From: an uncultured bacterium
GTDB taxonomy: Bacteria; Patescibacteriota; Minisyncoccia; Phycocordibacterales; CAIRYW01
DNA length: 64,000 nucleotides
Direction: 5' to 3'
Assembly: GCA_963766885.1 (NCBI GenBank)
Contig: CAVYBO010000002.1
Coordinates: 365,521 to 429,520 of the forward strand
This document shows, one piece after another, positions 27,665 through 58,764 of the stretch. A program made the position numbers and the translations under genes. The notes beneath the pieces were generated by a model. The model searched no databases. It had not been told where the DNA came from and saw nothing but the letters and a program-made list of their open reading frames with translations. Numbering within the stretch: the first letter of the stretch is position 1; every line of letters starts with the position of its first letter.

Positions 27665-27747
27665 ATTCCGTAATTATAGACTGGCTAAACTTAAAAACAA
27701 AATGTGAATAAAGTGCCATACATTACGTAATCTGCTAAACTAATGCG

Positions 27748-29568: not shown

Positions 29569-29595
29569 AAAGCCCCTATTAAGGGGCTTTTTAAT
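29567..29595. terminator. bidirectional intrinsic terminator
   Basis: aaaagcccctattaaggggcttttt sits between convergent genes. Confidence 0.75.
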
Positions 29596-29614
29596 TTTTG
29601 AGCAATTTTTAAAT

Positions 29615-30028: not shown

Positions 30029-30120
30029 ATAAATGCGATCTAAAAACTTAATAATGATTAACTTGCTTATAATTATACACTAATTGAAAGAATACAATGT
30101 TTGATTGTGGATAACTAAAA

Positions 30121-31890: not shown

Positions 31891-31956
31891 ACATCCATAA
31901 AAACAGAAAACCCTCCGCCTGGGCGAAGGGTTTTGGTTTTAAAATCTATAAAAGAT

Positions 31957-32325: not shown

Positions 32326-32467
32326 TTTCTTATAATAAATTCTTTTAATATGTGCCGCTTAGTTCGACGAAGCGGTTGTTTTCTTTGACCCTCGATTTTT
32401 CAAGGTATTAATAATTATATCAGTAAATTAATATTTAAAAGCCCGGGGTGTGGAAAAGTCCCAATAT

Positions 32468-33671: not shown

Positions 33672-33692
33672 TTTAAATCAGTTATATTAAGA

Positions 33693-34754: not shown

Positions 34755-34759
34755 TTGTA

Positions 34760-35167
34760 TTATTTTTTATCTTTTTCTTCAGTAATCCTAAGAACCTCTT
34801 TTAAAACTTCTGACGGTATCGTAGTCGCTTTGACTATAAATCCGTCAACATTCAGCTTTTGCGCCCTATCAATATCGCTTGGCTGACCTTGGTTGGAAAG
34901 AATAATGACTGTGGTATTGGGTATAAGATTTTCTTTGCGAATTGTTTCCAAAAGCTCCATACCGTCCATTCCAGGCATCACAACATCTAAAAGCAAAATA
35001 TCTGGGCTCAATCCTGTACGAAATTTGTCTAGAGCTTCCTCAGCAGATTGAATAGCTTGAACTCCCATTCCTTCTTTGGTGAATTTCATTGAATACATAT
35101 TTAAAAGGAACTTATCATCATCCACCAAAACTATTGAATATTTATTCTTTACTTTGTTATCGTCCAT
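34760..35167 (-). CDS. response regulator, receiver domain only (PilH-like, within the pilus operon)
   Basis: It has VLVDDD, ILLLDVVMPGMDG and a conserved K. Confidence 0.75.
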   Translation of the reverse strand: MDDNKVKNKYSIVLVDDDKFLLNMYSMKFTKEGMGVQAIQSAEEALDKFRTGLSPDILLLDVVMPGMDGMELLETIRKENLIPNTTVIILSNQGQPSDIDRAQKLNVDGFIVKATTIPSEVLKEVLRITEEKDKK

Positions 35168-35202
35168 TACTATTTAATTATAACATCAAATTTATGCAAA
35201 TT

Positions 35203-36926
35203 TTATGCCAGAGTGCTTATTTCTTCAAAAGGAATTTGATGATCAAGGGCTTTGATGATTGCGTCTTCTTTCATTGTGAGCATTCCCTCTTTTCTAACTA
35301 CTTTCCAAATTTCAGTTTCAACAGGACTTGCAAGAATAACACTTTCCAATTCTCTACTCATTTTAAAAACTTCAAAGACAGCTAGCCTTCCGTGAGTGCC
35401 CTTAGGACACTCAGTAGTGGGTGTCGCCTCAAGCACCGTTCTCTTTTTTGACAAATCGATTTTAGAATCTTGAGGTAAATCCACAAACTGTTTGTCTATC
35501 ATTACTTGAATACTTCCTTCTACAGGGATCTCTTTGGCACCTTCAGGACATATTTTTGCAACAAGACGCTGCGCCATAGATAAAATCAAAGTCGGAGCGA
35601 TAAGATATGGGTCGATGCCCATATCCACAAGTCTTGGAATTACGCCGATTGCATCGTTGGTGTGAATTGTCGAAAATACAAGGTGACCAGTAAGCGCGGC
35701 CTGGATTGCAAGAGCTGCGGTTTCCTTATCTCTGATTTCTCCAACCATGATTATATCCGGATCTTGACGAAGTGTGGTACGCAACCCATTGGCAAAGGTA
35801 TAGTCTATCTCCGGTCTGATTTGCGATTGGCTCATTCCTTCAATGCTGTATTCCACAGGATCTTCCAAAGAAAGCACGTTATTGGATTCTTTATCTACTT
35901 CTTCTATCATGGAATACAGCGTTGTGGTTTTTCCAGATCCCGTAGGCCCAGAAATCAAAATCAATCCGTAAGGCTTGTGAATGGCTTCTTTTACTAATTC
36001 CATATTTCTTGGCGATAAATCCAGATCCTTCAAAGATTTAACACCTCTTGAGTCTGGTCCAAAATTCTCATCACAACCTTTTCTCCATAATATGTTGGAA
36101 ATGTTGAAACACGAAAATCAATTTTTCTACCGTCAATTCTTGCGCTGAATCTGCCGTCTTGAGGCTTTCTTTTTTCATCAAGCTTCATATCAGATAGAAT
36201 TTTTATTCTTGCCACAACAGCATTGAGAACTTTTGCAGGTAAAATAAGCGATGTGTGCAAAACGCCGTCCAACCTGAATCTAACTCTGACCTTATCAGCC
36301 ATTGGCTCTACATGCACATCAGACGCTTCACCTTCGATGGCATAACGAAGAATTGTGGCAACAATTTTTTTAACTGGCGCATCTTCTATAATATTTACAG
36401 AATTTATTTTTTTGCCGACTTCCTCGTCCTTAATATTGACCATCTCTCTTTCTTCGTCTGAAAGATCATCTTCTAATTCAGAAAGAGCTTTTGTGACTTC
36501 TCCAGATAGACCTTTGTAAGAAAGCATGGCTTTTTCATAGTCCTCCTTTGAAATAAGGAAAATTTTATAAGGAACATTGTTTTTTGAGGTAATGAAGTTA
36601 ATCGCGTCGCGGGCATCCAGATTTTCCGGGTCTACTACTCCAACTTCGAGAGCGCCGGCTTTTAAGTCTAAGGGCAGTATTTTGTAATAGTTTGCAGAGT
36701 CTTCTGGAATAAACTTCAAAATTTCCATCGGTATATTAGGGCTAGACAAGACTCTGGTCGGCACACTCATATATTGACCTTTAGCTTCAAGAATGTCTTT
36801 ACTGCTTACTCCGTATGATTTTAAAATATCTTCAAGTTGTTGGGGTGAAGCGGCTTCTGATTGTGCTTTTTTTGCGTCTTCAGAGGTTATTACCCCCTTT
36901 TTTAAAAGAATAGTTAAAAAATCCAT
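35203..36926 (-). CDS. pilB: type IV pilus assembly ATPase (GspE family), interrupted by a 1-nt indel in an A/T run (36032-36034)
   Basis: The N-terminal ORF has the GSPII_E N-domain and ends in RILDQTQEVLNL. The C-terminal ORF has EAIHKPYGLILISGPTGSGKTTT. Adding one T restores EVLNLLKDLDLSPRN. Confidence 0.85.
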
Positions 36927-36928
36927 TG

Positions 36929-37327
36929 CTATTGATTAGTTTGCGAATTAAGAGAAGGTGTTGAAGTGCTAGAAACCGTCTCCTCTGAAAGTCCTAAGTC
37001 TTCAACTGTTGAAGATCCAGCATTCATACCCTCAACTGGAGCAAACGGATCATCTCTTTGCTTGTCCTCTGGAATAATCGTCTGACCAAAATCCTTAAGA
37101 GAAGCATACTCTTGGTCATCAAAAAATGTTGTATCGAATTGAATATTTTGCACCTGCAAAAGAAGTGGTAAAAAATCAGCTAGGTCTGGATTGTCTGTTG
37201 TTGTGGTAACTGAGACAGCATCCGTACTGCCGTTATTTTTGAAAAACATATTATAAAAAATGAAACCCACCGCTAAAATTGCGATAATAATTATGGGTAT
37301 TTTAAATTTTTGAAATAAGTCTTTCAT
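36929..37327 (-). CDS. pilus assembly accessory protein (PilP-like?), hypothetical
   Basis: It has an N-terminal transmembrane anchor and an S/T-rich tail. It sits between pilO and pilB. Confidence 0.4.
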   Translation of the reverse strand: MKDLFQKFKIPIIIIAILAVGFIFYNMFFKNNGSTDAVSVTTTTDNPDLADFLPLLLQVQNIQFDTTFFDDQEYASLKDFGQTIIPEDKQRDDPFAPVEGMNAGSSTVEDLGLSEETVSSTSTPSLNSQTNQ

Positions 37328-37328
37328 T

Positions 37329-37880
37329 TTATTTTAGCCAATATGTTCTTATGTTTACTAAATAATCATAAGCAGTCCCGGTATTAGGAGATTGAAAATC
37401 AACACCTATAACATCGACAACCCTGAGACTCTGCTCTAAATCCTCTAAAAATGCGACGAAGCTCTGGTAACTTCCGGTAACCTCAAAAGAAAGCACAAGG
37501 GATCCGACAGGGTCAGTATTTGGACCAAGAGTGGCTTGTCCGCTTATATTGTTGGAAACATCTTGATTCTGTATTTTTATATTTCGCAGTGACATTCCGT
37601 GATTCCTTGCGATGCCGTTCATATCAAGGGCCAGCTGAACGTTGTCAACATCATCAGGCAAAAGCTTAACTATTGCATCCAAATCTGCCGGACTAAAACT
37701 GTTGTATTCTGATTCCAACTGCTTTCTTTTATTAAGAATTTGTACAGATTTGTCCAGAGCAGCATTTAAACTACTGACTTGAGAACTGACACTTTTTATA
37801 GCCTGATACTGAGGATTTGTAACAGCCAGAAAAATCCCGATTGATGCAATTAAAATTAAAATTGGAACTATTGTTTTCAT
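37329..37880 (-). CDS. pilO: type IV pilus assembly protein PilO-like
   Basis: It has a single N-terminal transmembrane helix, a coiled segment and a periplasmic domain. The gene order pilM-pilN-pilO supports the call. Confidence 0.6.
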   Translation of the reverse strand: MKTIVPILILIASIGIFLAVTNPQYQAIKSVSSQVSSLNAALDKSVQILNKRKQLESEYNSFSPADLDAIVKLLPDDVDNVQLALDMNGIARNHGMSLRNIKIQNQDVSNNISGQATLGPNTDPVGSLVLSFEVTGSYQSFVAFLEDLEQSLRVVDVIGVDFQSPNTGTAYDYLVNIRTYWLK

Positions 37881-38608
37881 TGCGATTGGATTTGATTATT
37901 TGAAGAGCTGTTAGTGTCTGTTTGGCTCTGAGTGGTGCTTGAATCTGAATTTGTATCTGTACTTGAGACACTCTGACTTAAATCTGTAACTGTACTTGAA
38001 GCGTCCTGATTTTGATCAGTAGCATAAGCGCTTAGATTGTTTTTATACAACAAGAAACTTGGATCAATGTTGGCACTGAAATCAAAAACCACATTTCCTG
38101 ACTTATCAAGATTTAGATTGGAGAATACAACATTCCTAAAGGCTGGGTCGTTTGAAAATACTTTAGCCTGATATGCCAGAGAATTATAAGATGCTGCCAA
38201 GCCAGACATCTGGACAGCAATTGACCCTGTATTGTCAGTACCATATTTTAAGTTCAAAAACTGAACTGACTTCAAAGTGTCATTGTCCAGAAGATTAAAA
38301 AGGGCTGAAATTGATACATGATTTTCCAATAGAGAACTTGCATTAGTAAAACGGCTGTTTAGCCTTGCGTACTCCTTTATAGTGTCCGGCTCAAAAGCAT
38401 TTTCATTTTTTTCCAGATCATTTTGAATAGATGCCACTTCGCTCAAGAGATACTGGTGCCACGCATAAGTGCCCGCTGCCACTACCACGCTTAATATAAG
38501 GATAATAATTGAAATAAAACTAAGAAAGCTCCCTTCCCTGTGAGGGCCTGAGATTGGCTTATCAAGAGACGTCTTTGGTATAAAAGTATTTTGAAAATTT
38601 GTTTCCAC
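37877..38608 (-). CDS. pilN: type IV pilus assembly protein PilN-like
   Basis: It has a single transmembrane helix and a coiled segment, and is translationally coupled between pilM and pilO. Confidence 0.6.
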   Translation of the reverse strand: METNFQNTFIPKTSLDKPISGPHREGSFLSFISIIILILSVVVAAGTYAWHQYLLSEVASIQNDLEKNENAFEPDTIKEYARLNSRFTNASSLLENHVSISALFNLLDNDTLKSVQFLNLKYGTDNTGSIAVQMSGLAASYNSLAYQAKVFSNDPAFRNVVFSNLNLDKSGNVVFDFSANIDPSFLLYKNNLSAYATDQNQDASSTVTDLSQSVSSTDTNSDSSTTQSQTDTNSSSNNQIQSQ

Positions 38609-38691
38609 TTCTCTTATATTCTAACCCCTAATCAAAATTCTGTGTAGAGCAAACTGTGCACATCTTTAGAATTTAATAGTTTAAATTATGA

Positions 38692-39807
38692 TTACATAAA
38701 TTCCTGAAGCTTGCGCAAGGCAATACCGGCAGCAACGGCAAAATCCAAACCGCTTTCTTTGAGAATATCAGCAAGAAACGCCGGCACTTCAATTTTGCCA
38801 AAAGCATCCCCCATAACAACCTGTGTTTGGAACTTGGATTTTGCAAAATCTATAAAACCACTCATAGCAACTCCGCCGCCAGTTAGAAATACCTTTGATA
38901 CCGCTTTGTGGGTTTTTTTCTCATAAAAAAGCATAAAGCTTCCCGCTTCTGAAAAAACGTAATCTAGAGTGAGAGACACTATGTCATAAATGCTTTTTTC
39001 TTCTTCTTTGTTCAGAGTCCCCATGTTTCTTTTGATTTTTTCCGCCTTCTCCATGGAAACTTGGTAGCCTTGGGAAATGGCGGAAGTGATATCCTGAGAG
39101 CCTTTGTTTATTATGTGCGACTGCTTGACTATACCTCTTTCAACTATATAAAGTTTTGTTGCTGCGGCGCCCATGTCAAAAATCATAACTGTGTTTATTT
39201 CGTGCTCAATAATAGAACGGATTGTTGCAAACATTTCTATTTCAAAAAAACTTGTCGCAAGTCCCGCGCCTTTGACTACTGAATTATAATTGTTCAAAAC
39301 TTCATTATGGATTGAAACAATCAAAACTTCTGTTTTGTCTGATTTGATCGGCTCTTCGTCGCCCGGAGAAGCAAAGCTTCGAGGCTCCTCTTTTGGAATT
39401 ATCCACCAATCCATTGCAACTTCGCTTATCGGCACAGGAATATATTTTCTGGCTTCAAGCGGCACCATCTTGTTCAGTTCGTTTTGAGAAAGATTCGGCA
39501 TTTCAATTATTGAAACTAAGCTGGCGCGCAAAGGAATAGCGATACCGGCGTTTGCTGTAGTGACATTCGCTTCCTTCATCAAATCTCTTATGATCTCGCT
39601 TACCTTTTCCTGTGGAAGTGTTGCAGCTTGGCCAATTGTCACTCCGGCATAAGGACCTATAGCGAGACTTCCGTAAGTTTTTAGAATCGCTTTGCCTTTT
39701 GATTTGGCAACCTGGACGATTTTTATAGCCGAAGACCCAATGTCAACTCCGATTACGTTCGTGTCTGCGTGGTTGAACTTAAGTATGTTACTTAAAAAAT
39801 TATTCAT
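38692..39807 (-). CDS. pilM: type IV pilus assembly ATPase-fold protein PilM
   Basis: It has the actin-like fold signatures VIGVDIGSSAIKIV and FDMGAAATKL. Confidence 0.8.
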   Translation of the reverse strand: MNNFLSNILKFNHADTNVIGVDIGSSAIKIVQVAKSKGKAILKTYGSLAIGPYAGVTIGQAATLPQEKVSEIIRDLMKEANVTTANAGIAIPLRASLVSIIEMPNLSQNELNKMVPLEARKYIPVPISEVAMDWWIIPKEEPRSFASPGDEEPIKSDKTEVLIVSIHNEVLNNYNSVVKGAGLATSFFEIEMFATIRSIIEHEINTVMIFDMGAAATKLYIVERGIVKQSHIINKGSQDITSAISQGYQVSMEKAEKIKRNMGTLNKEEEKSIYDIVSLTLDYVFSEAGSFMLFYEKKTHKAVSKVFLTGGGVAMSGFIDFAKSKFQTQVVMGDAFGKIEVPAFLADILKESGLDFAVAAGIALRKLQEFM

Positions 39808-39834
39808 AAAATATAGTAATATAGAGATTATATC

Positions 39835-40518
39835 ATGATGGATCGGATCTTCTTTAAAATTCTATCATTTTTTCAGGATTGTTATGAAGAGTATCTTTTT
39901 CAAAAAAGCCCACTGGCAATCAGGCTTGAAAAATTCCAAAGCCAGGATTGGCTTGCTCTTCTTTCTCCCTTAGAAAAAAATAATGTCTTGAGTTTTTTTT
40001 CCTATGAAAACAAAGAAATACACGAGGCCATAAGAGAAATAAAATATTCCAGAAACAAAAAAATTCTTGTTTCTTTGGCTGATTTTTGCGCAGATATGCT
40101 TTTATCTTTTTTGGAAGATGATATAAATTTTGGTTCGGATTCAAAAATTGTTTTTGTTTCGGTGCCGAGCCATAAAAAAAGTTTGCAAGAAAAAGGATTC
40201 AACCAAGCAGAAGATCTGAGTAAAGAAATTTCCAAAAAATTTGCAATTCCATCGCAAATGAATAAAAATATTTTAAAGAAAATTAAGTACACCAAGCACC
40301 AGACAAATCTTTCCAGAAATGAAAGACTAAAAAATCTGCATCAGGCGTTCATCGCAGAAATTCCCGAAGAAATTAAGGTCGAAATCGACAAAACATTTTT
40401 TATCGTCATAGACGATGTCTCCACCACTGGAAGCACAATGCGCGAAAGCCGGCGCGTGCTTCGCCGCGCCGGCGCAAAACATATTCTTTGTTTTTCTATC
40501 GCCCGAAGCGGAGAGTAA
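39835..40518 (+). CDS. comF: ComF-family phosphoribosyltransferase-domain competence protein
   Basis: IVIDDVSTTGSTMRESRRVLRRAGAK is the PRTase motif typical of ComFC. It is adjacent to the pilus locus. Confidence 0.7.
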   Translation: MMDRIFFKILSFFQDCYEEYLFQKSPLAIRLEKFQSQDWLALLSPLEKNNVLSFFSYENKEIHEAIREIKYSRNKKILVSLADFCADMLLSFLEDDINFGSDSKIVFVSVPSHKKSLQEKGFNQAEDLSKEISKKFAIPSQMNKNILKKIKYTKHQTNLSRNERLKNLHQAFIAEIPEEIKVEIDKTFFIVIDDVSTTGSTMRESRRVLRRAGAKHILCFSIARSGE

Positions 40519-41858: not shown

Positions 41859-41924
41859 AATGTCTAATTATAACATTATGAAAATAGAAAAAGATGAGGT
41901 TTTATGATAATCTGTCAAAACCTT

Positions 41925-42013
41925 GGAGACGTGTCAGAGCGGTCGAATGTGCATCTTTGCTAAAGATGTAGGGGCTTCAAAACCCCTCGCGGGTTCGAAT
42001 CCCGCCGTCTCCG
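41925..42013 (+). tRNA. tRNA-Ser (GCT), class II
   Basis: It has acceptor GGAGACG/CGTCTCC, anticodon loop TTGCTAA, a long variable arm, T-loop TTCGAAT and discriminator G. Confidence 0.85.
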
Positions 42014-42155
42014 AAAAGACTGATTCTGATATATTTTATATCAGAATCTGGCTTTGGGACGCCGATTCGAAAGACGCAGACGCGACGGCGTCGAGCCGGG
42101 GTCGCAGAAATTTTCAGCAGAAAATCATCTGTGACCGAATCCCACTGTGATTATT

Positions 42156-42245
42156 GGAGAGATGGATGAGTGGTTTAAATCAGCAGTTTACTAAACTGCC
42201 GAGCCTTAACAGGCTCCGAGGGTTCGAATCCCTCTCTCTCCGCCA
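42156..42245 (+). tRNA. class II Ser-like tRNA with an unusual anticodon loop (TTACTAA, nominal anticodon ACT); CCA is encoded
   Basis: It has acceptor GGAGAGA/TCTCTCC, D-loop GAGTGGTTTAA, anticodon stem GCAGT/ACTGC, a long variable arm, T-loop TTCGAAT and discriminator G followed by CCA. Confidence 0.65.
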
Positions 42246-42250
42246 AGCCT

Positions 42251-43939
42251 TTATTTTATATACTTGTACTTCTGTTGCATCAAAAGAGCCCAAGATCCTA
42301 TTTGATTTATAAGATTTAGATTTTGAGAGATTGACCATCCAGAATAATGACCGTTGTTTGAACAGCTATTTGTAGTTACAGGATTATAATTAAGCCAAGG
42401 CTGGAATATTATACCGTCTGATACTCCGTTGCCTGTGCCCGTGGCGTTACTTGTCGCGTTGTACGGACCGCTTTTATCTCCCCACCAGTTGTTAGAAAGA
42501 TTATATGATGATCCCGGATTTGCAATTGCTCCCATTCCATTAAACTCAATGCTGTTGTTAGATACTGCAAGAGTTGTATTATCGATCGGATATATTCCAA
42601 AAGCACTGTTTGTTATCTGGCTGTACTGCAGATTAATACTATTGTTTGAGTAGCTGCTATCGCCGAAACTAGTAATTCCGCCGAGCGAACAGTTTTCAAT
42701 CGTGATGTTCTTTGCTGTTACCGCCGCTTGATTAAAAGCCACAATTCCGTATCCTCCGGTATTGATTGTTGTCGATTGAATAGTTGTAGAAGCGTTATCA
42801 AATATATTAATACCGCTATTTGAAGAACCGAAATTGCTTATAGTACTGTTTTTTATGTTTAGATTGCTGCTGTTGAAAGCATCAATAGCATCTCCAGAAA
42901 CAGCATTAATTGTGAGCGCGTTTGCATTGAGCGCACTATTGTCCCACACCTGTAACGCAGTGCTTCCATTTACGATGTTTTCTATTTCCGTGTTTGTCAG
43001 ATTAACGCTTGCGTTATTAAATGCCTGAAGAGAAACTCCGTTAAATACAGTATTCTGGTTTGTTCCGTAACCTAAACTCGCCGCGGTAGAAAGCGTACCG
43101 CCGTCGATGGTAATAAAGTTGCCGCCTGAAGATCCTTGGATGGTTACACCTGGATTAATGGTTAATGTTTTTCCAGATGATACTGTTGGATTTGAAAGAA
43201 GAATATAAGGGCCATCTCCGGATGCAAAAGAATAATTAATGCCATAGACATCACCAGTTAAACCAATACCGTTGTTTGTGTTATTAGAAAAACTGTTTGA
43301 GCTATGGGTAAATTGCGTGGAATAGTTGACCATCGCAGGCTGATTGTTGTTTGAGAAGCTGTTGCTATTCAACTGTAAGCTGCCACCGCTTGCAGAAATA
43401 CTAGTGCTGTCATTAGGAAAATTAGAATTGTTCACTGAAAGCGATGCATTTGATGATGATAACGCAGAATTAGCATAGCGCATTTCTACGCCATTGAATG
43501 CGCCGCTTGACTGATTTTCAAAAACAATACCTTTATATGATCCAATATTAGGAGTGCTCGTTGAATTTACTCCATTTGAAGCGAGCGTAGAGTCTTCTAT
43601 GGAAGTAAAGTATGTCTTTGTGCATAGTCCAATATTCAGTATGCTGCAAGTTAGAATATTTAATAAATTATTACTGCTGCCTGCAACAACCGAGCCGTAT
43701 ACATCAATCTCTGTCCCGTCACCAAACTGTACAACCACTCCGGGATTGATAGTGAGTTTCGCATTATTCGCAACTTGAATAGTGTTGGAGATAATATAAG
43801 GGCTTCCATTATTCGTCCAAGCAGTATTGCTTGTAATGTTACTCGAGACAATTGTTGACGCCTGCGAATAAAAAAAGGGAAACATGATAAATGAAACTGC
43901 GAAAATAAATTTTGCTGCTTTTTGATTTTTATATTTCAT
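42251..43939 (-). CDS. secreted right-handed beta-helix repeat protein (pectate-lyase-like fold)
   Basis: It has a signal peptide and many N-x-x-(I/V/L) and G/S/N-rich parallel beta-helix repeats. Confidence 0.6.
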   Translation of the reverse strand: MKYKNQKAAKFIFAVSFIMFPFFYSQASTIVSSNITSNTAWTNNGSPYIISNTIQVANNAKLTINPGVVVQFGDGTEIDVYGSVVAGSSNNLLNILTCSILNIGLCTKTYFTSIEDSTLASNGVNSTSTPNIGSYKGIVFENQSSGAFNGVEMRYANSALSSSNASLSVNNSNFPNDSTSISASGGSLQLNSNSFSNNNQPAMVNYSTQFTHSSNSFSNNTNNGIGLTGDVYGINYSFASGDGPYILLSNPTVSSGKTLTINPGVTIQGSSGGNFITIDGGTLSTAASLGYGTNQNTVFNGVSLQAFNNASVNLTNTEIENIVNGSTALQVWDNSALNANALTINAVSGDAIDAFNSSNLNIKNSTISNFGSSNSGINIFDNASTTIQSTTINTGGYGIVAFNQAAVTAKNITIENCSLGGITSFGDSSYSNNSINLQYSQITNSAFGIYPIDNTTLAVSNNSIEFNGMGAIANPGSSYNLSNNWWGDKSGPYNATSNATGTGNGVSDGIIFQPWLNYNPVTTNSCSNNGHYSGWSISQNLNLINQIGSWALLMQQKYKYIK

Positions 43940-49731: not shown

Positions 49732-51999
49732 ATGGGACAAGATTTAATTTCTTTTTTTAAAAAACTAACAGACAACCAAAAGCAAGCGCTTCAAAAAATG
49801 CGGCTCAAAACTTTGCGCGATTTGCTCTATCACTTCCCCACAAGATACGGCGGCACAGAAAAAGCAGTATTGATTTCTGCACTTCAACCAAAAATGCAAG
49901 CCACGATTTTTGGCAAAATTTCTAAAATAAAAATCAAAAAAACTTTCCGCACTCGGATTCCAATGACTGAAGCGACAATTTCTGATGATACAGATTCTGT
50001 CAAGGCTGTTTGGTTTAATCAGACATACATCGGCAGAATGTTTCAGGAAGAGAGCTTGGTGAGAATCGAAGGAATTGTTTCCGAAAATAAATCAGGTTTG
50101 TTTTTCTCCAATCCGCATATAGAAAAAGTTTCCAAAATTCCAGAAATTGTTGGGGATTCGCTTTTTGGCGAAGACGGCGAAGAGCACTCGTTGTATCCAG
50201 TCTATCAGGAATCCAAAGGCATAACCTCAAACTGGATTTATCACGCGTTAAATAAAATTTTTGCTTCAGAATTTTTTCAAAAAATTGAAGATCCACTTCC
50301 TCAAGAAATACTTCAGAAATACAGCCTGCCTTCCCTCAAAACAGCGCTTGTTTGGATACACACACCAAAAAAATCAGACGATGCGCTGGCAGCCAGAAAA
50401 CGTTTTGCTTTTGAAGAAGTTTTTTTTATCCAGCTACAAAATGAGATAGAAAGGAAGAAACAGAAAAAAGAAAAGTCGTTTGTTATTGATACCAAAGCAA
50501 TCGAACCTGAAATAAAAGATTTTGTCCAAAGGTTTCCCTTTTCTTTGACGCTGGCGCAAGAAAAAACCACTGCAGAAATTTTGAAAGATTTATCAAAGCC
50601 ATATCCGATGTCTCGCCTGCTTGAAGGCGACGTTGGCAGCGGCAAAACAGCTGTGGCAGCTACTACGGCGTTTGCAATCGTCGAAGGAGGTAAACCGACG
50701 GTGTCACAGGCGACTTCGCCAACGGCGAACGAAGACTGTGATCCGGAGGTTATCAAGCCTCAGAGTTACGCGCTTCGTTTTGCTCCGCAAAAGTCGCGCG
50801 TAACGTCTTCGGCTTTCACCGGTCCGCTTCAAGTCGCATACATGGCACCCACAGAAATTTTGGCAAAGCAGCACTTTGAATCCTTTATAAAGCTTTTCAG
50901 GCACCTGCCGATTTCAATCGGACTTATCACAGGCTCAGGTTGCAGAAAATTCCCATCCAAAGTCTCACCAAACGGCTGGACAAATATTTCTCGCAATCAA
51001 TTCCTCAAATGGGTTTCAAACGGTGAGATTTCAATTATCATAGGCACCCACGCTTTGATTCAAGAATCTGTAAAATTCAGAAACCTGGCTCTTGCAATCA
51101 TAGACGAACAGCATCGCTTTGGCACCCGAAGCCGCCAAAAAATCACCAAAAAAGATCCTCGGATTCCCCACCTGCTTTCAATGACTGCCACTCCGATTCC
51201 CCGCACGCTTGCTTTGACGATTTACGGAGACCTAGATTTGTCGCTACTTGATGAACTGCCTGAAGGCAGGCAAAAAACCAAAACAGAAATTGTCTTGCCA
51301 AATGAGCGGGAAAAAGTTTACGAAAAAATAAAATCAGAAATAAATTCCGGCAGACAGGCTTATGTCATTTGTCCCAAAATCAACGCTCCGGAACTAGGGC
51401 AAGAAAACATCATCAATTCAAAATCAGTCAAAGAAGAAGCCAAAAGATTAAAGAAATTTATTTTTCCGGAATTTGAAATCGGCACAATGCACGGCAAAAT
51501 GACTCCAACCGAAAAAGATAAAACTATGGAGAAATTTGAAGCGGGCAAAATTGATATTTTAGTTGCCACGTCTGTAGTGGAAGTCGGAGTAAATGTGCCA
51601 AACGCCACAATGATAATTATTGAGGGCGCGGAGCGTTTTGGACTGGCGCAGCTTCACCAGCTGCGGGGACGCGTGCAAAGAAGCGAGAAAGAATCTTTTT
51701 GTTTTGTGTTTACCGAAAGTGAAAGTGAAAAGACACTTCAGCGTCTAAAAGCATTAGAGACAGCAAGAAACGGATTTGAACTTTCCGAACTTGATCTCAA
51801 ACTCCGCGGTGCAGGAGAACTCTCTGGCGGCAAACAATGGGGACTCTCCGACTTGGCGATGGAAGCGATAAAAAATATCAAAATGGTGGAAGCAGCCCGC
51901 TTGGAGGCCAAAGAAATTGTTGCCAAAAACAGCAATCTCAAAAACTATCCTTTTCTTGCAAAAGTGATAGAAAACAAAAAAGAAGTGCATTTTGAATAG
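49732..51999 (+). CDS. recG: ATP-dependent DNA helicase RecG, with a ~45-aa GC-rich in-frame insertion after Walker A
   Basis: It has the wedge domain (LRDLLYHFPTRYGG), Walker A (GDVGSGKTAVA), DEQHRFG and helicase C motifs. Confidence 0.85.
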   Translation: MGQDLISFFKKLTDNQKQALQKMRLKTLRDLLYHFPTRYGGTEKAVLISALQPKMQATIFGKISKIKIKKTFRTRIPMTEATISDDTDSVKAVWFNQTYIGRMFQEESLVRIEGIVSENKSGLFFSNPHIEKVSKIPEIVGDSLFGEDGEEHSLYPVYQESKGITSNWIYHALNKIFASEFFQKIEDPLPQEILQKYSLPSLKTALVWIHTPKKSDDALAARKRFAFEEVFFIQLQNEIERKKQKKEKSFVIDTKAIEPEIKDFVQRFPFSLTLAQEKTTAEILKDLSKPYPMSRLLEGDVGSGKTAVAATTAFAIVEGGKPTVSQATSPTANEDCDPEVIKPQSYALRFAPQKSRVTSSAFTGPLQVAYMAPTEILAKQHFESFIKLFRHLPISIGLITGSGCRKFPSKVSPNGWTNISRNQFLKWVSNGEISIIIGTHALIQESVKFRNLALAIIDEQHRFGTRSRQKITKKDPRIPHLLSMTATPIPRTLALTIYGDLDLSLLDELPEGRQKTKTEIVLPNEREKVYEKIKSEINSGRQAYVICPKINAPELGQENIINSKSVKEEAKRLKKFIFPEFEIGTMHGKMTPTEKDKTMEKFEAGKIDILVATSVVEVGVNVPNATMIIIEGAERFGLAQLHQLRGRVQRSEKESFCFVFTESESEKTLQRLKALETARNGFELSELDLKLRGAGELSGGKQWGLSDLAMEAIKNIKMVEAARLEAKEIVAKNSNLKNYPFLAKVIENKKEVHFE

Positions 52000-52043
52000 A
52001 TTTTTATTGTTCAAAAAAGTGTGCTATCTTACTTATTCTTGCA

Positions 52044-52889
52044 ATGAAAATATTAAGAAAAATATTTAAAATTTTAGTCTATATATTCGCCGCTTTGGGC
52101 TTTATTTTTGTGGCTGTTTATTTTGCAGTTAAGTTTCATCTCACAGACACCTCTGGAATTATAGACAATCAATTTATTCAAGGAGTTGGTTACGTGCTTC
52201 CTGGAAATACCGAAGCAAATTATTCTACAACCACTCCGCCTTGGGTAAATGATCCTGAATATCAAGCGCTCAAAGTTTCCATCTCCAAAGATGCAAATAT
52301 TATAACTGGCGTATCGGCAATCACTGGCGTGCCAGCGCGCCTTATTGTTATGCCACTTTTTGTAGAGCAAATGAGGCTTTATTATTCCGAACGCGAAACG
52401 TTCAAACAATTTTTCCAACCTTTGAACATTCTTGGCGCCCAATCTCAATTTTCTTGGGGAATTATGGGTTTCAAAGAAATGACAGCGGAAGAAATAGAAA
52501 ACGATCTCAAAAATCCTACTTCTCCAGACTATCTTGGTGTTCAATATGCGCATCTGCTTGATTTTGATTCTACAGATCCAATTAACATTAGTATTGACCG
52601 CTTCCAGCGTCTAACCAGCAGCACCGATCATTATTACAGCTATCTTTATGCTGCTTTGTATATAAAAGAAATAGAAACCCAGTGGAAAGCTGCTGGATTT
52701 GATATTTCAAAGAGACCAGAAATTATAGCAACGCTCTACAACATCGGCTTTGATCATTCCAAACCAAACGCCAATCCGCAAGTCGGCGGCGCAGAAATTG
52801 ATATTGATGCATTCAAATACAGCTTCGGCGGCCTCGGCGGCCAATTCTACTATTCAAACGAGCTTACGAATCTGTTTCCGAAAACTTAA
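52044..52889 (+). CDS. membrane-anchored hypothetical protein
   Basis: It is 281 aa with an N-terminal transmembrane helix. Confidence 0.45.
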   Translation: MKILRKIFKILVYIFAALGFIFVAVYFAVKFHLTDTSGIIDNQFIQGVGYVLPGNTEANYSTTTPPWVNDPEYQALKVSISKDANIITGVSAITGVPARLIVMPLFVEQMRLYYSERETFKQFFQPLNILGAQSQFSWGIMGFKEMTAEEIENDLKNPTSPDYLGVQYAHLLDFDSTDPINISIDRFQRLTSSTDHYYSYLYAALYIKEIETQWKAAGFDISKRPEIIATLYNIGFDHSKPNANPQVGGAEIDIDAFKYSFGGLGGQFYYSNELTNLFPKT

Positions 52890-52926
52890 ACCAGAATAGC
52901 CTTATAAAATAAGCTCTTTTTCATAT

Positions 52927-52954
52927 TTGACATTTCCCCTAAAAGTGATATAAT
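52927..52954 (+). promoter_or_regulatory. near-consensus sigma70 promoter
   Basis: TTGACA, a 16-nt spacer, then TATAAT, followed by a GAGGA Shine-Dalgarno ahead of ATG 53017. Confidence 0.6.
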
Positions 52955-53016
52955 ATTACTCGAACGGTGGGGAATGACTCTTCACCAAAAAACCAAGATC
53001 TTTGAGGAACAAACCT

Positions 53017-53382
53017 ATGAATGAAAACCTGTACGCCATTGTCGCCCTGCTCATTCTGAGCCTGGTGATCACCCTGATCCGTTTGCCGTTTAGCGAAGAA
53101 AAGCGCGGGCGGCTGAAATGCTATGGCATCGGGGTACTGCTCGTATCCCTGGTCATAGGCATGTACTACTTCGCTGGATGGTTCACCCATCTGTCGTGGG
53201 TAGAACATTTCATGCCCGACCATATCGCAAGCATCATCGACGGCATCTGCGCGATTGTTGGCATATTTGCGGCGCTTCTGTACTTCGTCTGTATGTTCGG
53301 ATGGATCATCGGCGCCGGAATGTGCATCTTCTTCGCGCCGCTGGCTGACGACTTCAGCATCTGGAGTGAATTCAGCAGGTAG
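53017..53382 (+). CDS. small 4-transmembrane protein encoded in GC-rich, enterobacterial-style codons (foreign cassette)
   Basis: It has CTG-rich codon usage and GC around 52% against a background near 33%. It has a GAGGA Shine-Dalgarno and an intrinsic terminator. Confidence 0.55.
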   Translation: MNENLYAIVALLILSLVITLIRLPFSEEKRGRLKCYGIGVLLVSLVIGMYYFAGWFTHLSWVEHFMPDHIASIIDGICAIVGIFAALLYFVCMFGWIIGAGMCIFFAPLADDFSIWSEFSR

Positions 53383-53419
53383 CTGACCGAACCGTTTGAA
53401 GGAGTTCCTAAACCTTCTT

Positions 53420-53456
53420 CCCCGTTTTGCATTACGCAAGCGGGGTGTTTTTTATT
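53420..53456 (+). terminator. intrinsic terminator
   Basis: ccccgttttgcattacgcaagcgggg followed by a T-run. Confidence 0.8.
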
Positions 53457-53476
53457 TTCAAATTATAAAACCCAAG

Positions 53477-53497
53477 CTATGCGTGTGGAGGGGCTCG
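53477..53497. repeat. 20-nt duplicate of the tRNA-Ile 3' end (att-like)
   Basis: tatgcgtgtggaggggctcg is identical to 53618-53638. Confidence 0.8.
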
Positions 53498-53619
53498 GTC
53501 ACAGATAAATTTCTGCTGAAATTTTCTTCGACCCCACCTCGCGCCGTCGCGCTCCGGCTTTCGAGCCGACTAACGCTTTGCTTCGCAAAGCTAGTCAGCG
53601 CATACTCGCTTCGCTCGTA

Positions 53620-53692
53620 TGCGTGTGGAGGGGCTCGAACCCCCGACCGGACGAGTATAAGTCGTCTGCTCTACCAACTGAGCTACACACGC
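53620..53692 (-). tRNA. tRNA-Ile (TAT)
   Basis: It has a perfect acceptor GCGTGTG/CACACGC, anticodon loop CTTATAC and T-loop TTCGAGC. Confidence 0.8.
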
Positions 53693-53737
53693 GCAAAAAG
53701 AATATTATAGCAAAATAGCTCTTTTATCAATTTAATA

Positions 53738-55669
53738 TTACGCCACAATGTCCGCAGCTGCTGGATCAATCACCTTTTTCTTTTTGAGAGTTATTCCAAA
53801 AGGCACGATTATTTTTTCGTACTCTTCCATTTCGATCACTTCAACTTCAACAAGCTTTTTGGCAAGGACATCCAAGAGAGTTTTGTATTGATTCAAAATG
53901 TCTTGTGCTTGTTGCATAGCATTGTGCATTATTGCAGAAACTTCAGTGTCAATTTCATCGCCAACTTTTTCAGAATATTCTTTGTCGCTCACTCCCTGGC
54001 CAAAAAGCACTTTGCCTCCAGAGCCTTCAAGCGCCACAGGGCCAAGTTTGTCGCTCATTCCGTATTTGGTAACCATATCGCGAGCCAAAGCTGTAGATAC
54101 CTGCAAATCATTTGATGGGCCGGTTGTGATGTCTCCAAAAATCATTTTCTCTGCAACATATCCGCCCAAAGAAACCGCGATGTCATCAAGGAATTCTTTT
54201 TTGGATTGCATTCTTTTGTCTTCAATTGGAAGTTTGAGCATGTATCCTGCAGCGCGGCCTCGGGAAATAATTGAGATTTTGTGCACAGGATCAGAATATG
54301 GCAAGACACTGGCCAAGATTGCATGGCCTGCTTCGTGGTAGGCGGTGATTTCTTTTTCTTTCATTGAAAGAATATGACTTCGGCGTTCTGGACCAAGCAT
54401 TACCTTTTCAATTGATCTAATCAGATCAAACTGGGCAACCTTTTTGCGATTTTCACGCGCTGCCAGAATCGCCCCTTCGTTCATCAAAGAATACAAATCC
54501 GCTCCTGAAAATCCCGGCGTTCTCTCGGCAATCAATCCCAAATTTATATCTTCGCCAAAAGGCTTGCCTCTGGAATGAATCTTCAAAATATCTTCTCTGT
54601 CTTTTCTGTCTGGCAAATCAATCACCACTCTTCTATCAAATCTTCCTGGACGCAAAAGTGCAGGATCCAAAACATCAGGCCTGTTGGTGGCTGCCATGAT
54701 AATTACTTTTTCGTTTGGCTCAAAACCGTCCATCTCCACAAGAATTTGGTTTAGAGTCTGTTCTCTTTCATCGTTTCCTCCGCCAACTCCCGTGCCTCGC
54801 ACTCTTCCAACAGCGTCAATTTCATCAATAAATATAATTGCCGGGGCTGCAGTCTTGGCAAGTTTGAATAAATCTCGCACACGCGACGCGCCAACTCCCA
54901 CAAACATTTCCACAAATTCTGAACCGGAAATCGAGAAGAAAGAAACATTGGCTTCTCCGGCAACGGCTCGGGCAAGCAAAGTTTTGCCAGTTCCAGGCGC
55001 GCCCATCAAAAGAATTCCTTTGGGAATGCGCGCGCCGATTTCAATAAATTTTTTCGGATTTTTGAGAAAGTCTACAATTTCAAGCAGTTCTTCTTTGGCT
55101 TCCTTTGCTCCAGCAACATCGTTAAATGTTACGCGTTGTTTTTTGTCATCTGGATCAGTGATTCTGGCACGCGATTGTCCAAAAGAAAACGCCTGCATGC
55201 CGGCACCTTTGACTTGGCGAGAAAGATACCAGATTAAAAGCAGTGTAAAGACTAGCGGCAAAAGAATTGGCCCGATAATCGTTTCAAACCAATATGCAAA
55301 TCCGGAACCTGTGGTCACACTGATTGCCACTTTGGACATTTGATCTGCGGTAACACCAAACTTTGAAAGCGAATCCGTCAAAGAACTTTCGTCTTCTTTT
55401 TGGGAAGTTTTCTCAGTGCCATCTCTGTATGTCAAAATCAAGCCGCTGTCTGAAACGTCAACGCTTTTGATTTTTCCGCTTTCTATGTCAGTTGCCACTT
55501 GTGTCAGACTGATTTCGGTTTTTGGAGAATAATAGTCTGAGATATAAGAGTATGAAGCCACCAAAATGCCCAAAAAAAGGATTACAATTATAATATTGCG
55601 AAAAAACTCCCCTTTTACAGGCGGTAGATTCTTCTTTTTGTTATTTTTTGGACTTTTCTGATTATCCAT
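53738..55669 (-). CDS. ftsH: ATP-dependent zinc metalloprotease FtsH
   Basis: It has an N-terminal transmembrane region, an AAA module (GAPGTGKT) and the HEAGHA zinc motif. Confidence 0.9.
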
Positions 55670-55741: not shown

Positions 55742-56185
55742 ATGGATTTGGTCAAAAACAAAAAAGCCTTTTTCAACTATGAAATTCTCCAGGAATTTGA
55801 AGCTGGAGTGGAACTTTTGGGCTTGGAAGCCAAATCCATCCGAGCCGGTCAAGGCAATCTTGAAGGAGCGTTTGTGACAGTGCGCGGAAGTGAGGTTTTT
55901 TTGATTGGCTCAGATATTCCCGCCTTTCAACCCAAGAACGCGCCTCCATCGTATGAAAGGACACGGAATCGCAAGCTTCTTTTGACAAAACAGGAGATCC
56001 AAAAGCTGTCTGTAGAATCAGAAAACAAAGGGTTGACAATAGTGCCTATTTCGTTTTATAATAAAGGACACAAATTGAAGCTTCGCTTGGCAATAGCCAA
56101 AGGAAAGAAAAAGTTTGATAAAAGACAGTCAATCAAAAAGCGAGATACTGACAAAGAAATTAGAAGAACTTTGAAAAATCAATAG
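55742..56185 (+). CDS. smpB: SsrA-binding protein
   Basis: FNYEILQEFEAGVELLGLEAKSIRAG is the canonical SmpB N-terminus. Confidence 0.85.
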   Translation: MDLVKNKKAFFNYEILQEFEAGVELLGLEAKSIRAGQGNLEGAFVTVRGSEVFLIGSDIPAFQPKNAPPSYERTRNRKLLLTKQEIQKLSVESENKGLTIVPISFYNKGHKLKLRLAIAKGKKKFDKRQSIKKRDTDKEIRRTLKNQ

Positions 56186-56636: not shown

Positions 56637-57334
56637 CACTACAGGAATATTTCTCCTCAAATTTAGTTTATACATTGGTAACAAATAGTTTCGAGAGGTT
56701 CTAACCGTCACTTTTAAGCCATAATCGAAAACTATACAGTTTATAGACCAATTCTAATTGGAGCTTATTCTGTCTGCTTTAAAGAGGTTCTAACCAAAAC
56801 AAAGTCATAATCAAATATATTGTGTATAACGGCACTTGACTAACTTATACAAAAAGTATAAGCTTAGTAGGTACTTTGAAAAATCAAGGCAACTGGATAG
56901 TCATTAAAGACGGTTATTTCAGGCAGAATAAAAACTGCCTCAACTTTCCTCTATAGGTACTAGTAGGAAAAGAAAATTCACCGGCACATCTGTGCATTAA
57001 TGTCTCTATTTACAAGGCTCATATATTTTTGGTCATAAGCTCAATTGATTCATGGCGTGTCAATGTCGTGTCATCTTTGCGAGTCAGGAATTTTTTTTGG
57101 TCAGAATTGGATGGGATAATTATAGAGATAGTTATATGGTAGGGGTTACTCAACGATCGAATGGTCAGTGAGTTTCACAACAAAACGCTACCACCGAAAC
57201 AAATGACCATTCAATCTGCGAGTCACCAATTAATAGAAAGAATTAATTCCCAAATAAACAAAATATGAAAAATTATTGGTATTCGTCACACAACAGTATT
57301 GCTTTGAGCGTTTTGTATGTAAGGGAGGCAAATT

Positions 57335-57412
57335 ATGGTAAGACAGCATCTAATCCGAATTCTCCAGATTTTAGTCTGGATTTTAAGGATTGTTCTGGAC
57401 ATCATAAGCTAG
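57335..57412 (+). CDS. small hydrophobic ORF (25 aa) with a strong Shine-Dalgarno; candidate leader or small peptide
   Basis: AAGGGAGG sits 6 nt before the ATG. The peptide is MVRQHLIRILQILVWILRIVLDIIS. The complement of the Shine-Dalgarno (gcctccctt) lies right at its stop. Confidence 0.3.
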   Translation: MVRQHLIRILQILVWILRIVLDIIS

Positions 57413-57437
57413 CCTCCCTTTAATCGTATTCTATATT

Positions 57438-57761
57438 ATGAACAACTTTCAAGATTTACTAAAAAAAATAAGAAATAAAGCTGACCTGACTCAAGAAGAT
57501 TTAGCAAAAGCTCTTGGAGTTTCAACTGTACTTATTTCTATGATTGAAACGGGACAAAAACAAGTTTCGAGAAATTTTATTGAAAACCTAGCTGAAAAAT
57601 TATCAGTTCATCCTAGTTCAATCACACCTTTCTCGTTTATTGAAAAAGATATGGATATCAAAAAGCTTTCAGCTCTTGAGCGAAACTTAATTAAAGCTGG
57701 AAGTAAATTCCAAGATTATTTAATTACTACGAAAGCGAAAAAACTAAGAGAGTATGTCTAA
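57438..57761 (+). CDS. XRE-family (Cro/C1-type) HTH transcriptional regulator
   Basis: It has the HTH LTQEDLAKALGVSTVLISMIETGQ. Its stop overlaps the RT start, indicating translational coupling. Confidence 0.75.
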   Translation: MNNFQDLLKKIRNKADLTQEDLAKALGVSTVLISMIETGQKQVSRNFIENLAEKLSVHPSSITPFSFIEKDMDIKKLSALERNLIKAGSKFQDYLITTKAKKLREYV

Positions 57762-58764
57762 CAACAAGCGCTACCCGAACATCTCTATACGAAGTAAAAA
57801 CGAAATTGCAAAACGTATTTCGTCATCCTCTTTTTCTAAAAATGAAGCGTTAGATTTAATTAATGATGTTATTAAAAATTTTGACAGCTATTGGTATGAC
57901 AGTAAACGTTCCGAACCTGAAAAAAATAAATATGTAAGAAGCGCTGCAAAATCTCCTAAACTTAAAAAGCTTCTTGAGCTTATAAATGCAAAAATCCTTA
58001 CTCCGTATGATTATTTAATACCAGAATTTATTTATGGAGGAATTTCAAGAAGGAATAATATTCAAGCCGCTTATCACTTACTCGGCAACCAGCGAAATCG
58101 CACATTACTTAAGTTAGACGTGCAAAGCTTTTTTGAACAGATTACAAAAGAAAGGGTTTTCCACTTCTTTAATAATAAATCTCAATGCACTGTCGAAGCA
58201 TCAAATTTACTTGCTAAGTTCTGTTGTGTACCACGTGGTCCTAAAAATTCAGGGTCAACTGATATTATTCTTGCACGTGGCTTCGCAACTTCTTCTAGAC
58301 TTGCTGTATGGTGTAATCTCGATACTTTCGAACATTTGAATTGGAAAATTAAAAAGAAACTAAAAGGACACGACGCGCAAGTAGCAATATATGTCGACGA
58401 CATAGGAATTAGTGCAAGCAAAGTAAGTATTGAACAAATGGAAACTGCAAAAGAATTGGCTATAAATATATTGGAGAAAAGTGATTATAATCAATCTTTA
58501 CCCGTACATAGAGATGCTCGGAAAAACAAGATTATTCAATTTAATAAAGGTGCTGAACACTTAGGAATAAAACTTGGTAGAACCAAGTTAACACTTGGTA
58601 ACAAATCACGATCAAAAATAGATAAAATCAAAGAAGCAATCAAAGAAGCGGAAACAGAAAATGAAAAAAATACTTTGAGAGAAAAATATAAAGCTCATCA
58701 TCGCTATAGACAACAAGTAAAGAATATCGCGGTTATTAAAGATATAAGAAAAAAATATGACTAA
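57754..58764 (+). CDS. reverse transcriptase (compact, retron/defense-RT-like)
   Basis: It has RT motifs: YGGISRRNNIQAAYHL (motif 2, NAxxH-like), LLKLDVQSFFEQI (motif A), VPRGPKNSGS (motif B region), IYVDDIGIS (motif C, YxDD) and HLGIKLG (motif 7). Confidence 0.75.
   Translation: MSNNKRYPNISIRSKNEIAKRISSSSFSKNEALDLINDVIKNFDSYWYDSKRSEPEKNKYVRSAAKSPKLKKLLELINAKILTPYDYLIPEFIYGGISRRNNIQAAYHLLGNQRNRTLLKLDVQSFFEQITKERVFHFFNNKSQCTVEASNLLAKFCCVPRGPKNSGSTDIILARGFATSSRLAVWCNLDTFEHLNWKIKKKLKGHDAQVAIYVDDIGISASKVSIEQMETAKELAINILEKSDYNQSLPVHRDARKNKIIQFNKGAEHLGIKLGRTKLTLGNKSRSKIDKIKEAIKEAETENEKNTLREKYKAHHRYRQQVKNIAVIKDIRKKYD

Follow-up and report, generated by a model that had tools for sequence, protein, structure and literature searches.

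We analyzed a stretch of 64,000 nucleotides (nt), called the window here, from contig CAVYBO010000002.1 (GenBank assembly GCA_963766885.1), which is part of the chromosome of a member of the Parcubacteria (Patescibacteria, or candidate phyla radiation, CPR). Our focus was on positions 52927 to 53692, in a part of the chromosome where the gene order is recG, a gene for a 281-amino-acid (aa) protein, tRNA-Ile with the anticodon UAU, ftsH, smpB, and the gene for transfer-messenger RNA (tmRNA). The relatives of the 281-aa protein belong to Parcubacteria, Nomurabacteria, Paceibacterota, and Patescibacteria. An earlier, sequence-only reading had described these positions as one GC-rich cassette of foreign character, bounded by an att-like repeat at tRNA-Ile. 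We found two things rather than one cassette, i.e., an expression unit for a 121-aa membrane protein (52927 to 53458) and the native tRNA-Ile gene trailed by a structured element (53478 to 53692). We call this trailer element, of about 140 nt beside tRNA-Ile and of 80 to 175 nt among its copies, X.

The expression unit lies between X and the terminator of the 281-aa gene and is oriented towards tRNA-Ile. It starts with a predicted sigma-70 promoter (52927 to 52954, plus strand) that matches the consensus at 12 of 12 positions (TTGACA at 52927 to 52932, a 16-nt spacer, and TATAAT at 52949 to 52954), and a TG at 52946 to 52947 makes it an extended -10 promoter (TGaTATAAT). A GAGGA Shine-Dalgarno sequence (53004 to 53008, plus strand) stands 8 nt ahead of the ATG at 53017. 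The open reading frame (ORF; 53017 to 53382, plus strand) encodes a small membrane protein that is hydrophobic at residues 1 to 27, 33 to 57, and 68 to 110, for which hydropathy predicts three to four transmembrane (TM) helices, where exactly four had been claimed. The unit closes with a putative intrinsic terminator (53420 to 53458, plus strand), whose hairpin CCCCGuuuuGC/GCaaGCGGGG (53420 to 53445, -14.5 kcal/mol) is followed by the T-run TGTTTTTTATTTT. The promoter, the Shine-Dalgarno sequence, and the terminator are thus as first described. Judged from these matches of promoter and terminator to consensus, the gene is probably transcribed on its own from its near-consensus promoter. Such a promoter is no enterobacterial mark here. 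There are two perfect sigma-70 sites within the window against 0.04 expected, and the second one (TTGACA-N18-TATAAT; 56033 to 56062, plus strand), located within the 3' end of smpB, precedes the native tmRNA gene by about 180 nt and is probably its promoter. Consensus promoters are therefore at home in this genome.

The ORF is strongly foreign in composition. The GC content of the window is 37.8%, higher than the background of about 33% assumed before, and segment 53000 to 53692 with its 52.7% is the highest 700-nt stretch in it, close to the claimed 50% over about 700 bp. However, this GC-rich stretch is made of two blocks, the ORF (53.3%) and the repeat copy, spacer, and tRNA (55 to 65%), divided by a 22-nt linker of 27% GC, and about one-third of it is tRNA plus X. 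The GC content at third codon positions (GC3) is 0.74 in the ORF versus 0.33 ± 0.057, with a maximum of 0.42, in the 37 long ORFs of the window, which places the ORF about 7 standard deviations above the window genes. Its codons are accordingly CTG for 11 of 15 leucines (9% in the window), ATC for 11 of 16 isoleucines, and TTC for 9 of 11 phenylalanines.

A comparison with related loci, designated by L numbers here, indicated that the slot which holds the gene is variable. L002, the closest relative in GTDB, retains the order of recG, a 290-aa gene, tRNA-Ile (minus strand), ftsH, and smpB, and has an empty site, the 290-aa gene being separated from the tRNA-Ile 3' end by just 54 nt. Among 36 related loci with this tRNA, the gap on its 3' side ranges from 3 nt to 1.7 kb, and several have 3 to 10 nt between gene and tRNA-Ile, i.e., an empty site. 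The genes that fill the slot in the relatives are mutually unrelated and include a DnaJ-like protein, a BD-FAE hydrolase, a helix-turn-helix protein, membrane proteins, and orphans. Because the length of the gap varies so widely and its contents are unrelated among the relatives, this intergenic slot 3' of tRNA-Ile is a hot spot at which insertions recur, and compared with the empty state the approximately 730 nt found in it here are an insertion. In L028, another promoter-bearing gene, of 153 aa, occupies the same place directly after that locus's own copy of X, and this parallel suggests that the spot just beyond X is favored for insertion. Given the strongly foreign composition of the ORF together with the empty slot in relatives, the best reading of the 121-aa gene is that it was acquired horizontally beside the tRNA. 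The tRNA-Ile gene itself (53620 to 53692, minus strand; Rfam tRNA, 70 bits) is native. It adjoins the 281-aa gene across the clade, in the 36 related loci as well as in the window, in either orientation, and its conservation implies that AUA is decoded by a UAU tRNA in these bacteria.

The 121-aa protein defines a very small family. A word-index protein search with the ORF retrieved nothing beyond itself, whereas a phmmer search of 1.84e9 representatives found three true distant relatives and a profile search added one more. These four relatives are 122 to 127 aa long and 29 to 35% identical to the 121-aa protein. They share the motif RLPFSEExxGRLKxYGxG and a C-terminal DDxxIW, with an invariant core of RL.FS.E...RLK..G.G (R22, L23, F25, S26, E28, R32, L33, K34, G37, and G39) and a C-terminal D...W. 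The protein is real, since this motif is conserved in homologues of such low identity; the same conservation settles the plus frame, so that a 166-aa antisense ORF was ruled out as the coding frame.

Homologue DNA was readable for two of the relatives, designated P0122 and P0124. Their contigs have 36 to 39% GC outside the gene, and the GC3 of the homologue gene is 0.53 to 0.64, versus 0.31 to 0.35 for the adjacent infC and rpmI. P0122 has a TTGACT-17-TATAAT promoter. P0124 lies 250 nt 3' of a tmRNA gene with its own TTGACT-17-TATCAT promoter and a terminator, and one homologue contig carries smpB and tmRNA, as the window does. On L096 (519 to 2402), P0124 stands beside the tmRNA gene together with a 141-aa and an 86-aa gene of GC3 0.54 and 0.49, versus 0.29 to 0.35 for the neighbors, which suggests a multigene islet. 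A further relative, P0126, shares a layout of an 88-aa gene followed by infC and rpmI. We found no counterparts of the neighbors of P0122 and P0124 within the window. Since the readable relatives are all GC enriched and yet reside in low-GC contigs, the gene most likely came from a member of the same phylum with a higher GC content or from a pool of mobile genes that circulates in that phylum. High-GC relatives of this lineage exist, such as locus L022 with 59.6% GC, so that a donor within the phylum is plausible, though unproven. Of the earlier suggestion of a recent transfer from a high-GC donor, the foreign GC3 and the slot that is empty in relatives stand, and the donor remains a matter of composition.

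The same data bear on the possibility that the ORF is native and that its C-ending and CTG-rich codons reflect selection for high expression. The ORF prefers C-ending codons in the two-fold pyrimidine sets as well as GAA and AAA, as translationally optimal sets do, its promoter is very strong, and family members are GC3 enriched in three of three contigs with readable DNA. However, the infC and ribosomal-protein genes beside a homologue have a GC3 of 0.31 to 0.35 versus 0.53 for the homologue, no window ORF exceeds 0.42, none of the relatives examined has the gene in the syntenic slot, and among 5.8e9 proteins the family counts just 5 members. We therefore consider a native origin very unlikely.

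Known protein families gave few hints at a function. The sole Pfam match of the 121-aa protein was TMEM164, at 13 bits versus a cutoff of 25. PADLOC gave no match, the matches in PHROGs and NCBIfam had E values of 0.1 or worse, and the best match to a holin had an E value of 0.27. An AlphaFold2 model built from a four-sequence alignment was poor, with a predicted local distance difference test score (pLDDT) of 60 and a predicted template modeling score (pTM) of 0.33. A CmpB-like 122-aa protein encoded at the equivalent place in L013 was considered and rejected as a homologue (BLASTP E = 2.1). Our best guess is that the product is an accessory inner-membrane protein of an islet.

An assembly chimera, a contamination, or an engineered fragment had been named as alternatives, and some features would fit them. 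The composition changes abruptly, the codons resemble the optimal set of Escherichia coli (CTG, ATC, TTC, GAA, and GAC), and the promoter and terminator match the consensus perfectly. However, in blastn searches with a word size of 11, the tRNA part alone had matches among 5,426 E. coli genomes, 72,556 plasmids, and 50,697 phage records, and homologues of the same gene layout occur in other environmental contigs, those with readable DNA being low in GC. An independently built Logan contig (run ERR11630394) is 100% identical across 51438 to 53685 of the window, and its path, too, leads from recG by way of the cassette and the repeat to the inside of the tRNA. Furthermore, the 3' end of the genome's own tRNA-Ile, a lineage-specific one, recurs as an exact copy in the GC-rich part, the acceptor stem of this tRNA differing from the stems of its relatives; this part also includes X, a member of an element family found twice more in the window, and the second perfect promoter is native to the window. 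We conclude that the cassette is neither enterobacterial, engineered, nor chimeric, and we rate any origin of this kind as extremely improbable.

The repeat at tRNA-Ile belongs to X. As first noted, the 3' end of tRNA-Ile is duplicated: an exact 20-nt direct repeat, TATGCGTGTGGAGGGGCTCG, stands at 53478 to 53497 and at 53618 to 53637, consisting of the last 18 nt of tRNA-Ile and 2 nt of the trailer, with two copies versus 0.01 expected by chance. The repeats bracket a 120-nt spacer, which is X and holds no ORF, and the 121-aa ORF lies outside. The order of X on the tRNA strand is S1 (the 3' end of the RNA gene), a hairpin H1, segments complementary to S1, a core, and S3, a direct copy of S1. 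In the window, all on the minus strand, the loop of H1 (CGAGCGAAGCGAG) spans 53606 to 53619, and its stem uses the last nucleotides of tRNA-Ile. The anti-tRNA segments follow at 53560 to 53605; one of them, "a" (GTATGCG, 53599 to 53605), is complementary to the 3' end of tRNA-Ile plus trailer, the other, "t" (GGCTCGAA, 53560 to 53567), to its T-loop and T-stem, and a GCGAAGC-tipped hairpin lies between them. The core (53498 to 53565) consists of the hairpins P1 (GCGC-GACG-GCGC) and P2 (GGTCGaAGAAAATTTC-AGCA-GAAATTTATCTGTGACC), joined by GAGgtGGGG; it was identified by covariation and by a match to covariance model (CM) R1 at 53487 to 53565 (81 bits). S3, at 53478 to 53497, forms the 3' end of X as the exact copy of the last 18 nt of tRNA-Ile and 2 trailer nt. 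The "att-like" repeat is thus the terminal copy in X, part of a recurrent structured element.

We discovered X as sequence shared by the 3' flanks of tRNA-Ile in L042, L016, and L051, and searches with nhmmer and a CM brought the number of known copies to about 12, from 0.59 Mb of related DNA. X recurs behind tRNA or tmRNA genes in at least 7 related contigs. It stands behind tRNA-Ile in the window, L016, L028, L042, L051, and L086, behind tRNA-Ser in the window and L083, and behind the tmRNA gene in L051 (8319 to 8429), while the copy in L079 has no tRNA beside it. In 9 of 9 seed copies it is on the same strand as the tRNA and starts 23 to 73 nt past the tRNA 3' end. The second copy in the window (42066 to 42146, plus strand; CM, 100.6 bits) is 3' of tRNA-Ser(GCT). 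It lies between this gene and, 140 nt after the latter, another tRNA-Ser (42156 to 42245, plus strand), whose anticodon, ACT, is unusual (Aragorn; Rfam tRNA, 56 bits) and whose CCA is encoded. The third, divergent copy (14954 to 15054, minus strand; nhmmer E = 1e-13) is 3' of tRNA-Asp, where the stretch 14945 to 15117 (minus strand) has the same layout as tRNA-Ile, with a canonical terminator, X, and a 15/16 copy of the tRNA's own 3' end at approximately 14945 to 14960. The three copies in the window differ strongly from each other. In L053 (2027 to 2150, minus strand), X directly follows the first approximately 24 nt of tRNA-Ile (the 5' strand of the acceptor and the D-arm), a pseudo-tRNA, and an intact tRNA-Ile stands 23 nt further downstream of X.

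We failed to find any known family for X. An Rfam 15 cmscan with E values up to 5 to 10 (window 52800 to 53800 and 41900 to 42300, and L016 3700 to 3980) returned only tRNA and chance-level matches, and literature searches on tRNA-trailing or integrative elements in Patescibacteria returned nothing pertinent and no description of it. In X we have a conserved structured element, not described so far, behind several of the tRNA and tmRNA genes of this group.

The aligned copies share a core consensus of ...GAAAGrCGsAG-P1-CGAGyCGGGGTCGC-P2-AUCyGUGAC. Just 5' of the core, a segment pairs with the tRNA 3' end over 7 to 12 bp in 9 of 9 copies, and over at least 8 bp in 8 of them. An earlier attempt to read a copy as a T-arm with an inserted hairpin was replaced by the order of S1, anti-S, core, and S3 once more copies had been aligned. 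H1 is often a canonical terminator across the copies, and its stem may include the last tRNA nucleotides. S3 is identical to S1 at 20/20 positions at the window tRNA-Ile and at 15/16 positions at the window tRNA-Asp and the L051 tmRNA; it is degenerate at the window tRNA-Ser, L042, and L083, and only GACAA is left in L016, L028, and L086. In a plain MAFFT alignment, 90% of the P2 cells were paired and 7 of 15 pairs were compensatory, values that 0 to 1 of 500 shuffles reached. In the CM alignment, the corresponding values for P1 and P2 together were 94% and 13 of 20 pairs, and one G.U pair was invariant in 10 of 10 copies. P2 has 12 G.U versus 4 A.C cells, and this excess points to the tRNA-sense strand. 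By this comparison, the core is predicted to be a structured RNA, its helices carrying compensatory changes on one strand. On the other hand, an automated pairing test of the anti-tRNA segment against the downstream copy was weak and partly misanchored, and we do not claim a general closing helix.

The repeat had been proposed as the att boundary of the cassette, which amounts to a tyrosine-recombinase element in the 3' end of tRNA-Ile, with the repeats as attL and attR and the ORF as cargo or as what is left of an earlier integration in tandem, its distal att having decayed. The repeat indeed reaches from the T-loop to 2 nt beyond the end of the tRNA, as the identity block of tRNA-targeting integrases typically does, like duplications occur at tRNA-Asp, tRNA-Ser, and tmRNA genes, all of them classical integration targets, the slot is variable among relatives, and in L013 a 122-aa gene lies between two members of an array of partial tRNA-Ile 3' copies. 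However, an integrase island with the ORF as cargo disagrees with the locus in two defining respects, since the cargo lies outside the repeats and no integrase was found among the 20 window ORFs scanned. The repeats bracket only the 120-nt element, which also stands behind other tRNAs without a cassette, and a search for a third copy found none in the window at up to three mismatches, none near the 281-aa gene, and none near 52890 to 52926. No Phage_integrase domain was detected in the 20 ORFs. X is kept across genera and yet has divergent copies within one genome, and neither X (two core patterns) nor a relative of the 121-aa family was found in 2.9 million viral contigs. To our knowledge, moreover, tRNA-complementary segments inside the element are no feature of known attP arms. 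Overall, we consider an integrase island unlikely. An integron gene cassette does not match either, as the ORF has its own 12/12 promoter and terminator, no attC-like imperfect palindrome follows it, and the same 20 ORFs include no integrase.

Copies of a tRNA's own 3' end were seen elsewhere as well. Partial copies stand 77 to 174 nt downstream of the window tRNA-Asp, the L002 tRNA-Ser, and the tRNA-Ile of L013 and L018, while none was found behind the two tRNA-Met genes or the tmRNA gene of the window. In L013 (2041 to 3150), at least four copies of the 3' end of tRNA-Ile, partial or degenerate, form an array behind this tRNA, with the CmpB-like (PF06541) 122-aa gene between two of them. Three of these copies are preceded by a conserved module of about 45 nt (TCCAATCGGGGTACTGACCCTGTAAGGGTCGAGAT), and the same module stands behind the L002 tRNA-Ser. 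The module looks related to X and yet is distinct from it. In the viral contigs, one of its motifs had 0 matches and the other 10 chance matches without extension.

As for what X is, two explanations were weighed. X may well be a small nonautonomous insertion element specific for tRNA and tmRNA 3' ends that duplicates its target, which we favor, at somewhat less than an even chance. The tRNA-derived pieces range from long and clean to decayed among the copies, in contrast to the core, which stays conserved. Thus, the sense and antisense pieces may have been made at insertion and then eroded, and it is this that favors an insertion element for X. Such an element would duplicate its target in both orientations, possibly with the help of a trans-acting recombinase, a reverse transcriptase, or an RNA-guided protein. 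Alternatively, X with its 20-nt repeat could be a cis-acting read-through RNA in the tRNA 3' trailer, the ORF cassette being an unrelated neighbor. The anti-tRNA segment would pair with the 3' half of its own tRNA or with the downstream copy, forming a three-segment switch or a processing or stability signal for tRNA or tmRNA maturation. This explanation stays in play because of the strand-specific covariation, including the invariant G.U pair, and the cross-genus conservation, the sequence of X being kept across contigs whose 281-aa proteins are about 50% identical to that of this genome. The position on the tRNA strand, shortly after its 3' end, and the closing helix of L083 (GGGAUUUG/CAAAUUCC), which still pairs through G.U although the copy has drifted from the tRNA, are consistent with it. 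However, a canonical terminator with its U-run often forms the first hairpin behind the tRNA (as at the window tRNA-Asp, L042, and L051), so that transcription may seldom reach X. The downstream copy varies among loci from perfect to a remnant of 5 nt and so resembles a by-product of insertion more than a part under selection, and X is missing behind the same tRNA in many relatives. We hold a cis-acting RNA to be the less likely of the two.

Taken together, we consider it likely that the locus holds an acquired expression unit and a separate X in the tRNA-Ile hot spot. The cassette would have entered by recombination at the hot spot, in the spacer distal to X, rather than by an integrase event bounded by the 20-nt repeat. 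Several points weigh against this explanation. The insertion is dated only loosely, since the neighboring protein is only 53 to 69% identical in the nearest relatives with readable DNA (69% for the nearest). The transfer from a GC-rich donor is suggested by composition, and neither a donor lineage nor a high-GC homologue is known. No repeat, integrase, or transposase marks the boundaries of the cassette. The Logan contig stops inside tRNA-Ile and may share the reads of the sample, in which case it attests assembly-independent continuity and is no independent biological replicate. Finally, the CM alignment behind the pair counts of X was fitted to the model, and there are only about 12 copies.

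A few other features of the window and its relatives touch on these subjects. A type IV pilus and competence-type cluster at approximately 25000 to 40000 encodes PilM, three T2SSE ATPases, T2SSF, a prepilin peptidase, and an N-methyl pilin-like protein, and is relevant to DNA uptake as a route for an acquired gene. At 57438 to 58764 (plus strand), about 0.8 kb 3' of the tmRNA gene, a gene for a 107-aa HTH_3 protein overlaps the start of one for a 336-aa RVT_1 (reverse-transcriptase) protein, the latter at 57754 to 58764. The pair is preceded by about 800 nt without ORFs (56638 to 57437) that include short direct repeats (GAGGTTCTAACC, twice), and the whole of 56638 to 58764 looks like a retron or defense reverse-transcriptase locus at the flank of the tmRNA gene. 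Hairpins with covarying variable stems and the loop GAGCG(A/C)AGCGA, which contains the GCGAAGC mini-hairpin, occur at approximately 26675 to 26710 (minus strand), in L096 to L099 just after the tmRNA gene, and in L002 at approximately 225 to 250. One of them is upstream of a prepilin-peptidase gene, away from any tRNA.

Our findings indicate that ultra-small CPR genomes still acquire and retain lone expression units, complete with their own signals, at hot spots linked to tRNA genes, and that the 121-aa protein defines a tiny orphan membrane-protein family that travels as such units. As a case of gene transfer this is modest, and the trailer element is the more interesting product. We tentatively propose that X represents an undescribed Patescibacteria element class for tRNA and tmRNA 3' ends, of about 100 to 170 nt, in which antisense and sense copies of the host RNA surround a two-hairpin core; it could be mobile or an RNA switch, and it might mark the spot where single-gene cassettes insert. 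We regard this proposal as a possibility rather than an expectation. A mobile X would target tRNA genes in a new manner, and X as an RNA switch would add a new control layer on tRNA maturation in organisms with minimal RNA-processing machinery. For annotators, "att-like" tRNA repeats in these genomes need not delimit islands.

Among known systems, the 121-aa protein resembles the small membrane proteins of phages and islets (holins, superinfection-exclusion proteins, and PF06541 CmpB-like 4-TM proteins) in its length of about 120 aa, its three to four predicted TM helices, and its stand-alone gene in a variable region, an unrelated CmpB-like 122-aa gene occupying the equivalent place in L013. 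However, it differs in having no significant match to a Pfam, PHROG, PADLOC, or NCBIfam model. The locus shares with integrase-type tRNA/tmRNA islands the DNA of foreign composition on the tRNA 3' side, the direct repeat of the last approximately 18 to 20 nt of the tRNA, and the variable slot, the tmRNA gene being used as well. In contrast to such islands, the repeat here encloses a 120-nt noncoding element only and not the gene, no integrase is found, X has tRNA-complementary segments and conserved hairpins, and the cargo is one gene with its own promoter and terminator.

[quoted passage not shown] However, its copies in one genome are divergent instead of near-identical, as the three in the window are, its inverted and direct flanks derive from the local tRNA instead of fixed terminal repeats, the duplication being 15 to 20 nt, and no helper recombinase has been identified. 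Guide-RNA layouts, such as the omega RNA (or reRNA) of TnpB and the tRNA-matching homing CRISPR RNA (crRNA) of type V-K CRISPR-associated transposons (CAST), consist of a scaffold followed by a 16- to 20-nt target-identical 3' segment. X has no TnpB, IscB, Cas12k, or transposase gene nearby and no Rfam similarity to such RNAs, and its target-identical segment decays in many copies. On the other hand, the scaffold of X ends in ...AUCUGUGAC and is directly followed by 15 to 20 nt identical to the 3' end of the adjacent tRNA gene. As an analogy, then, X may recall a guide RNA in its layout of a scaffold plus a target-identical segment, tens of nt downstream of a tRNA gene.

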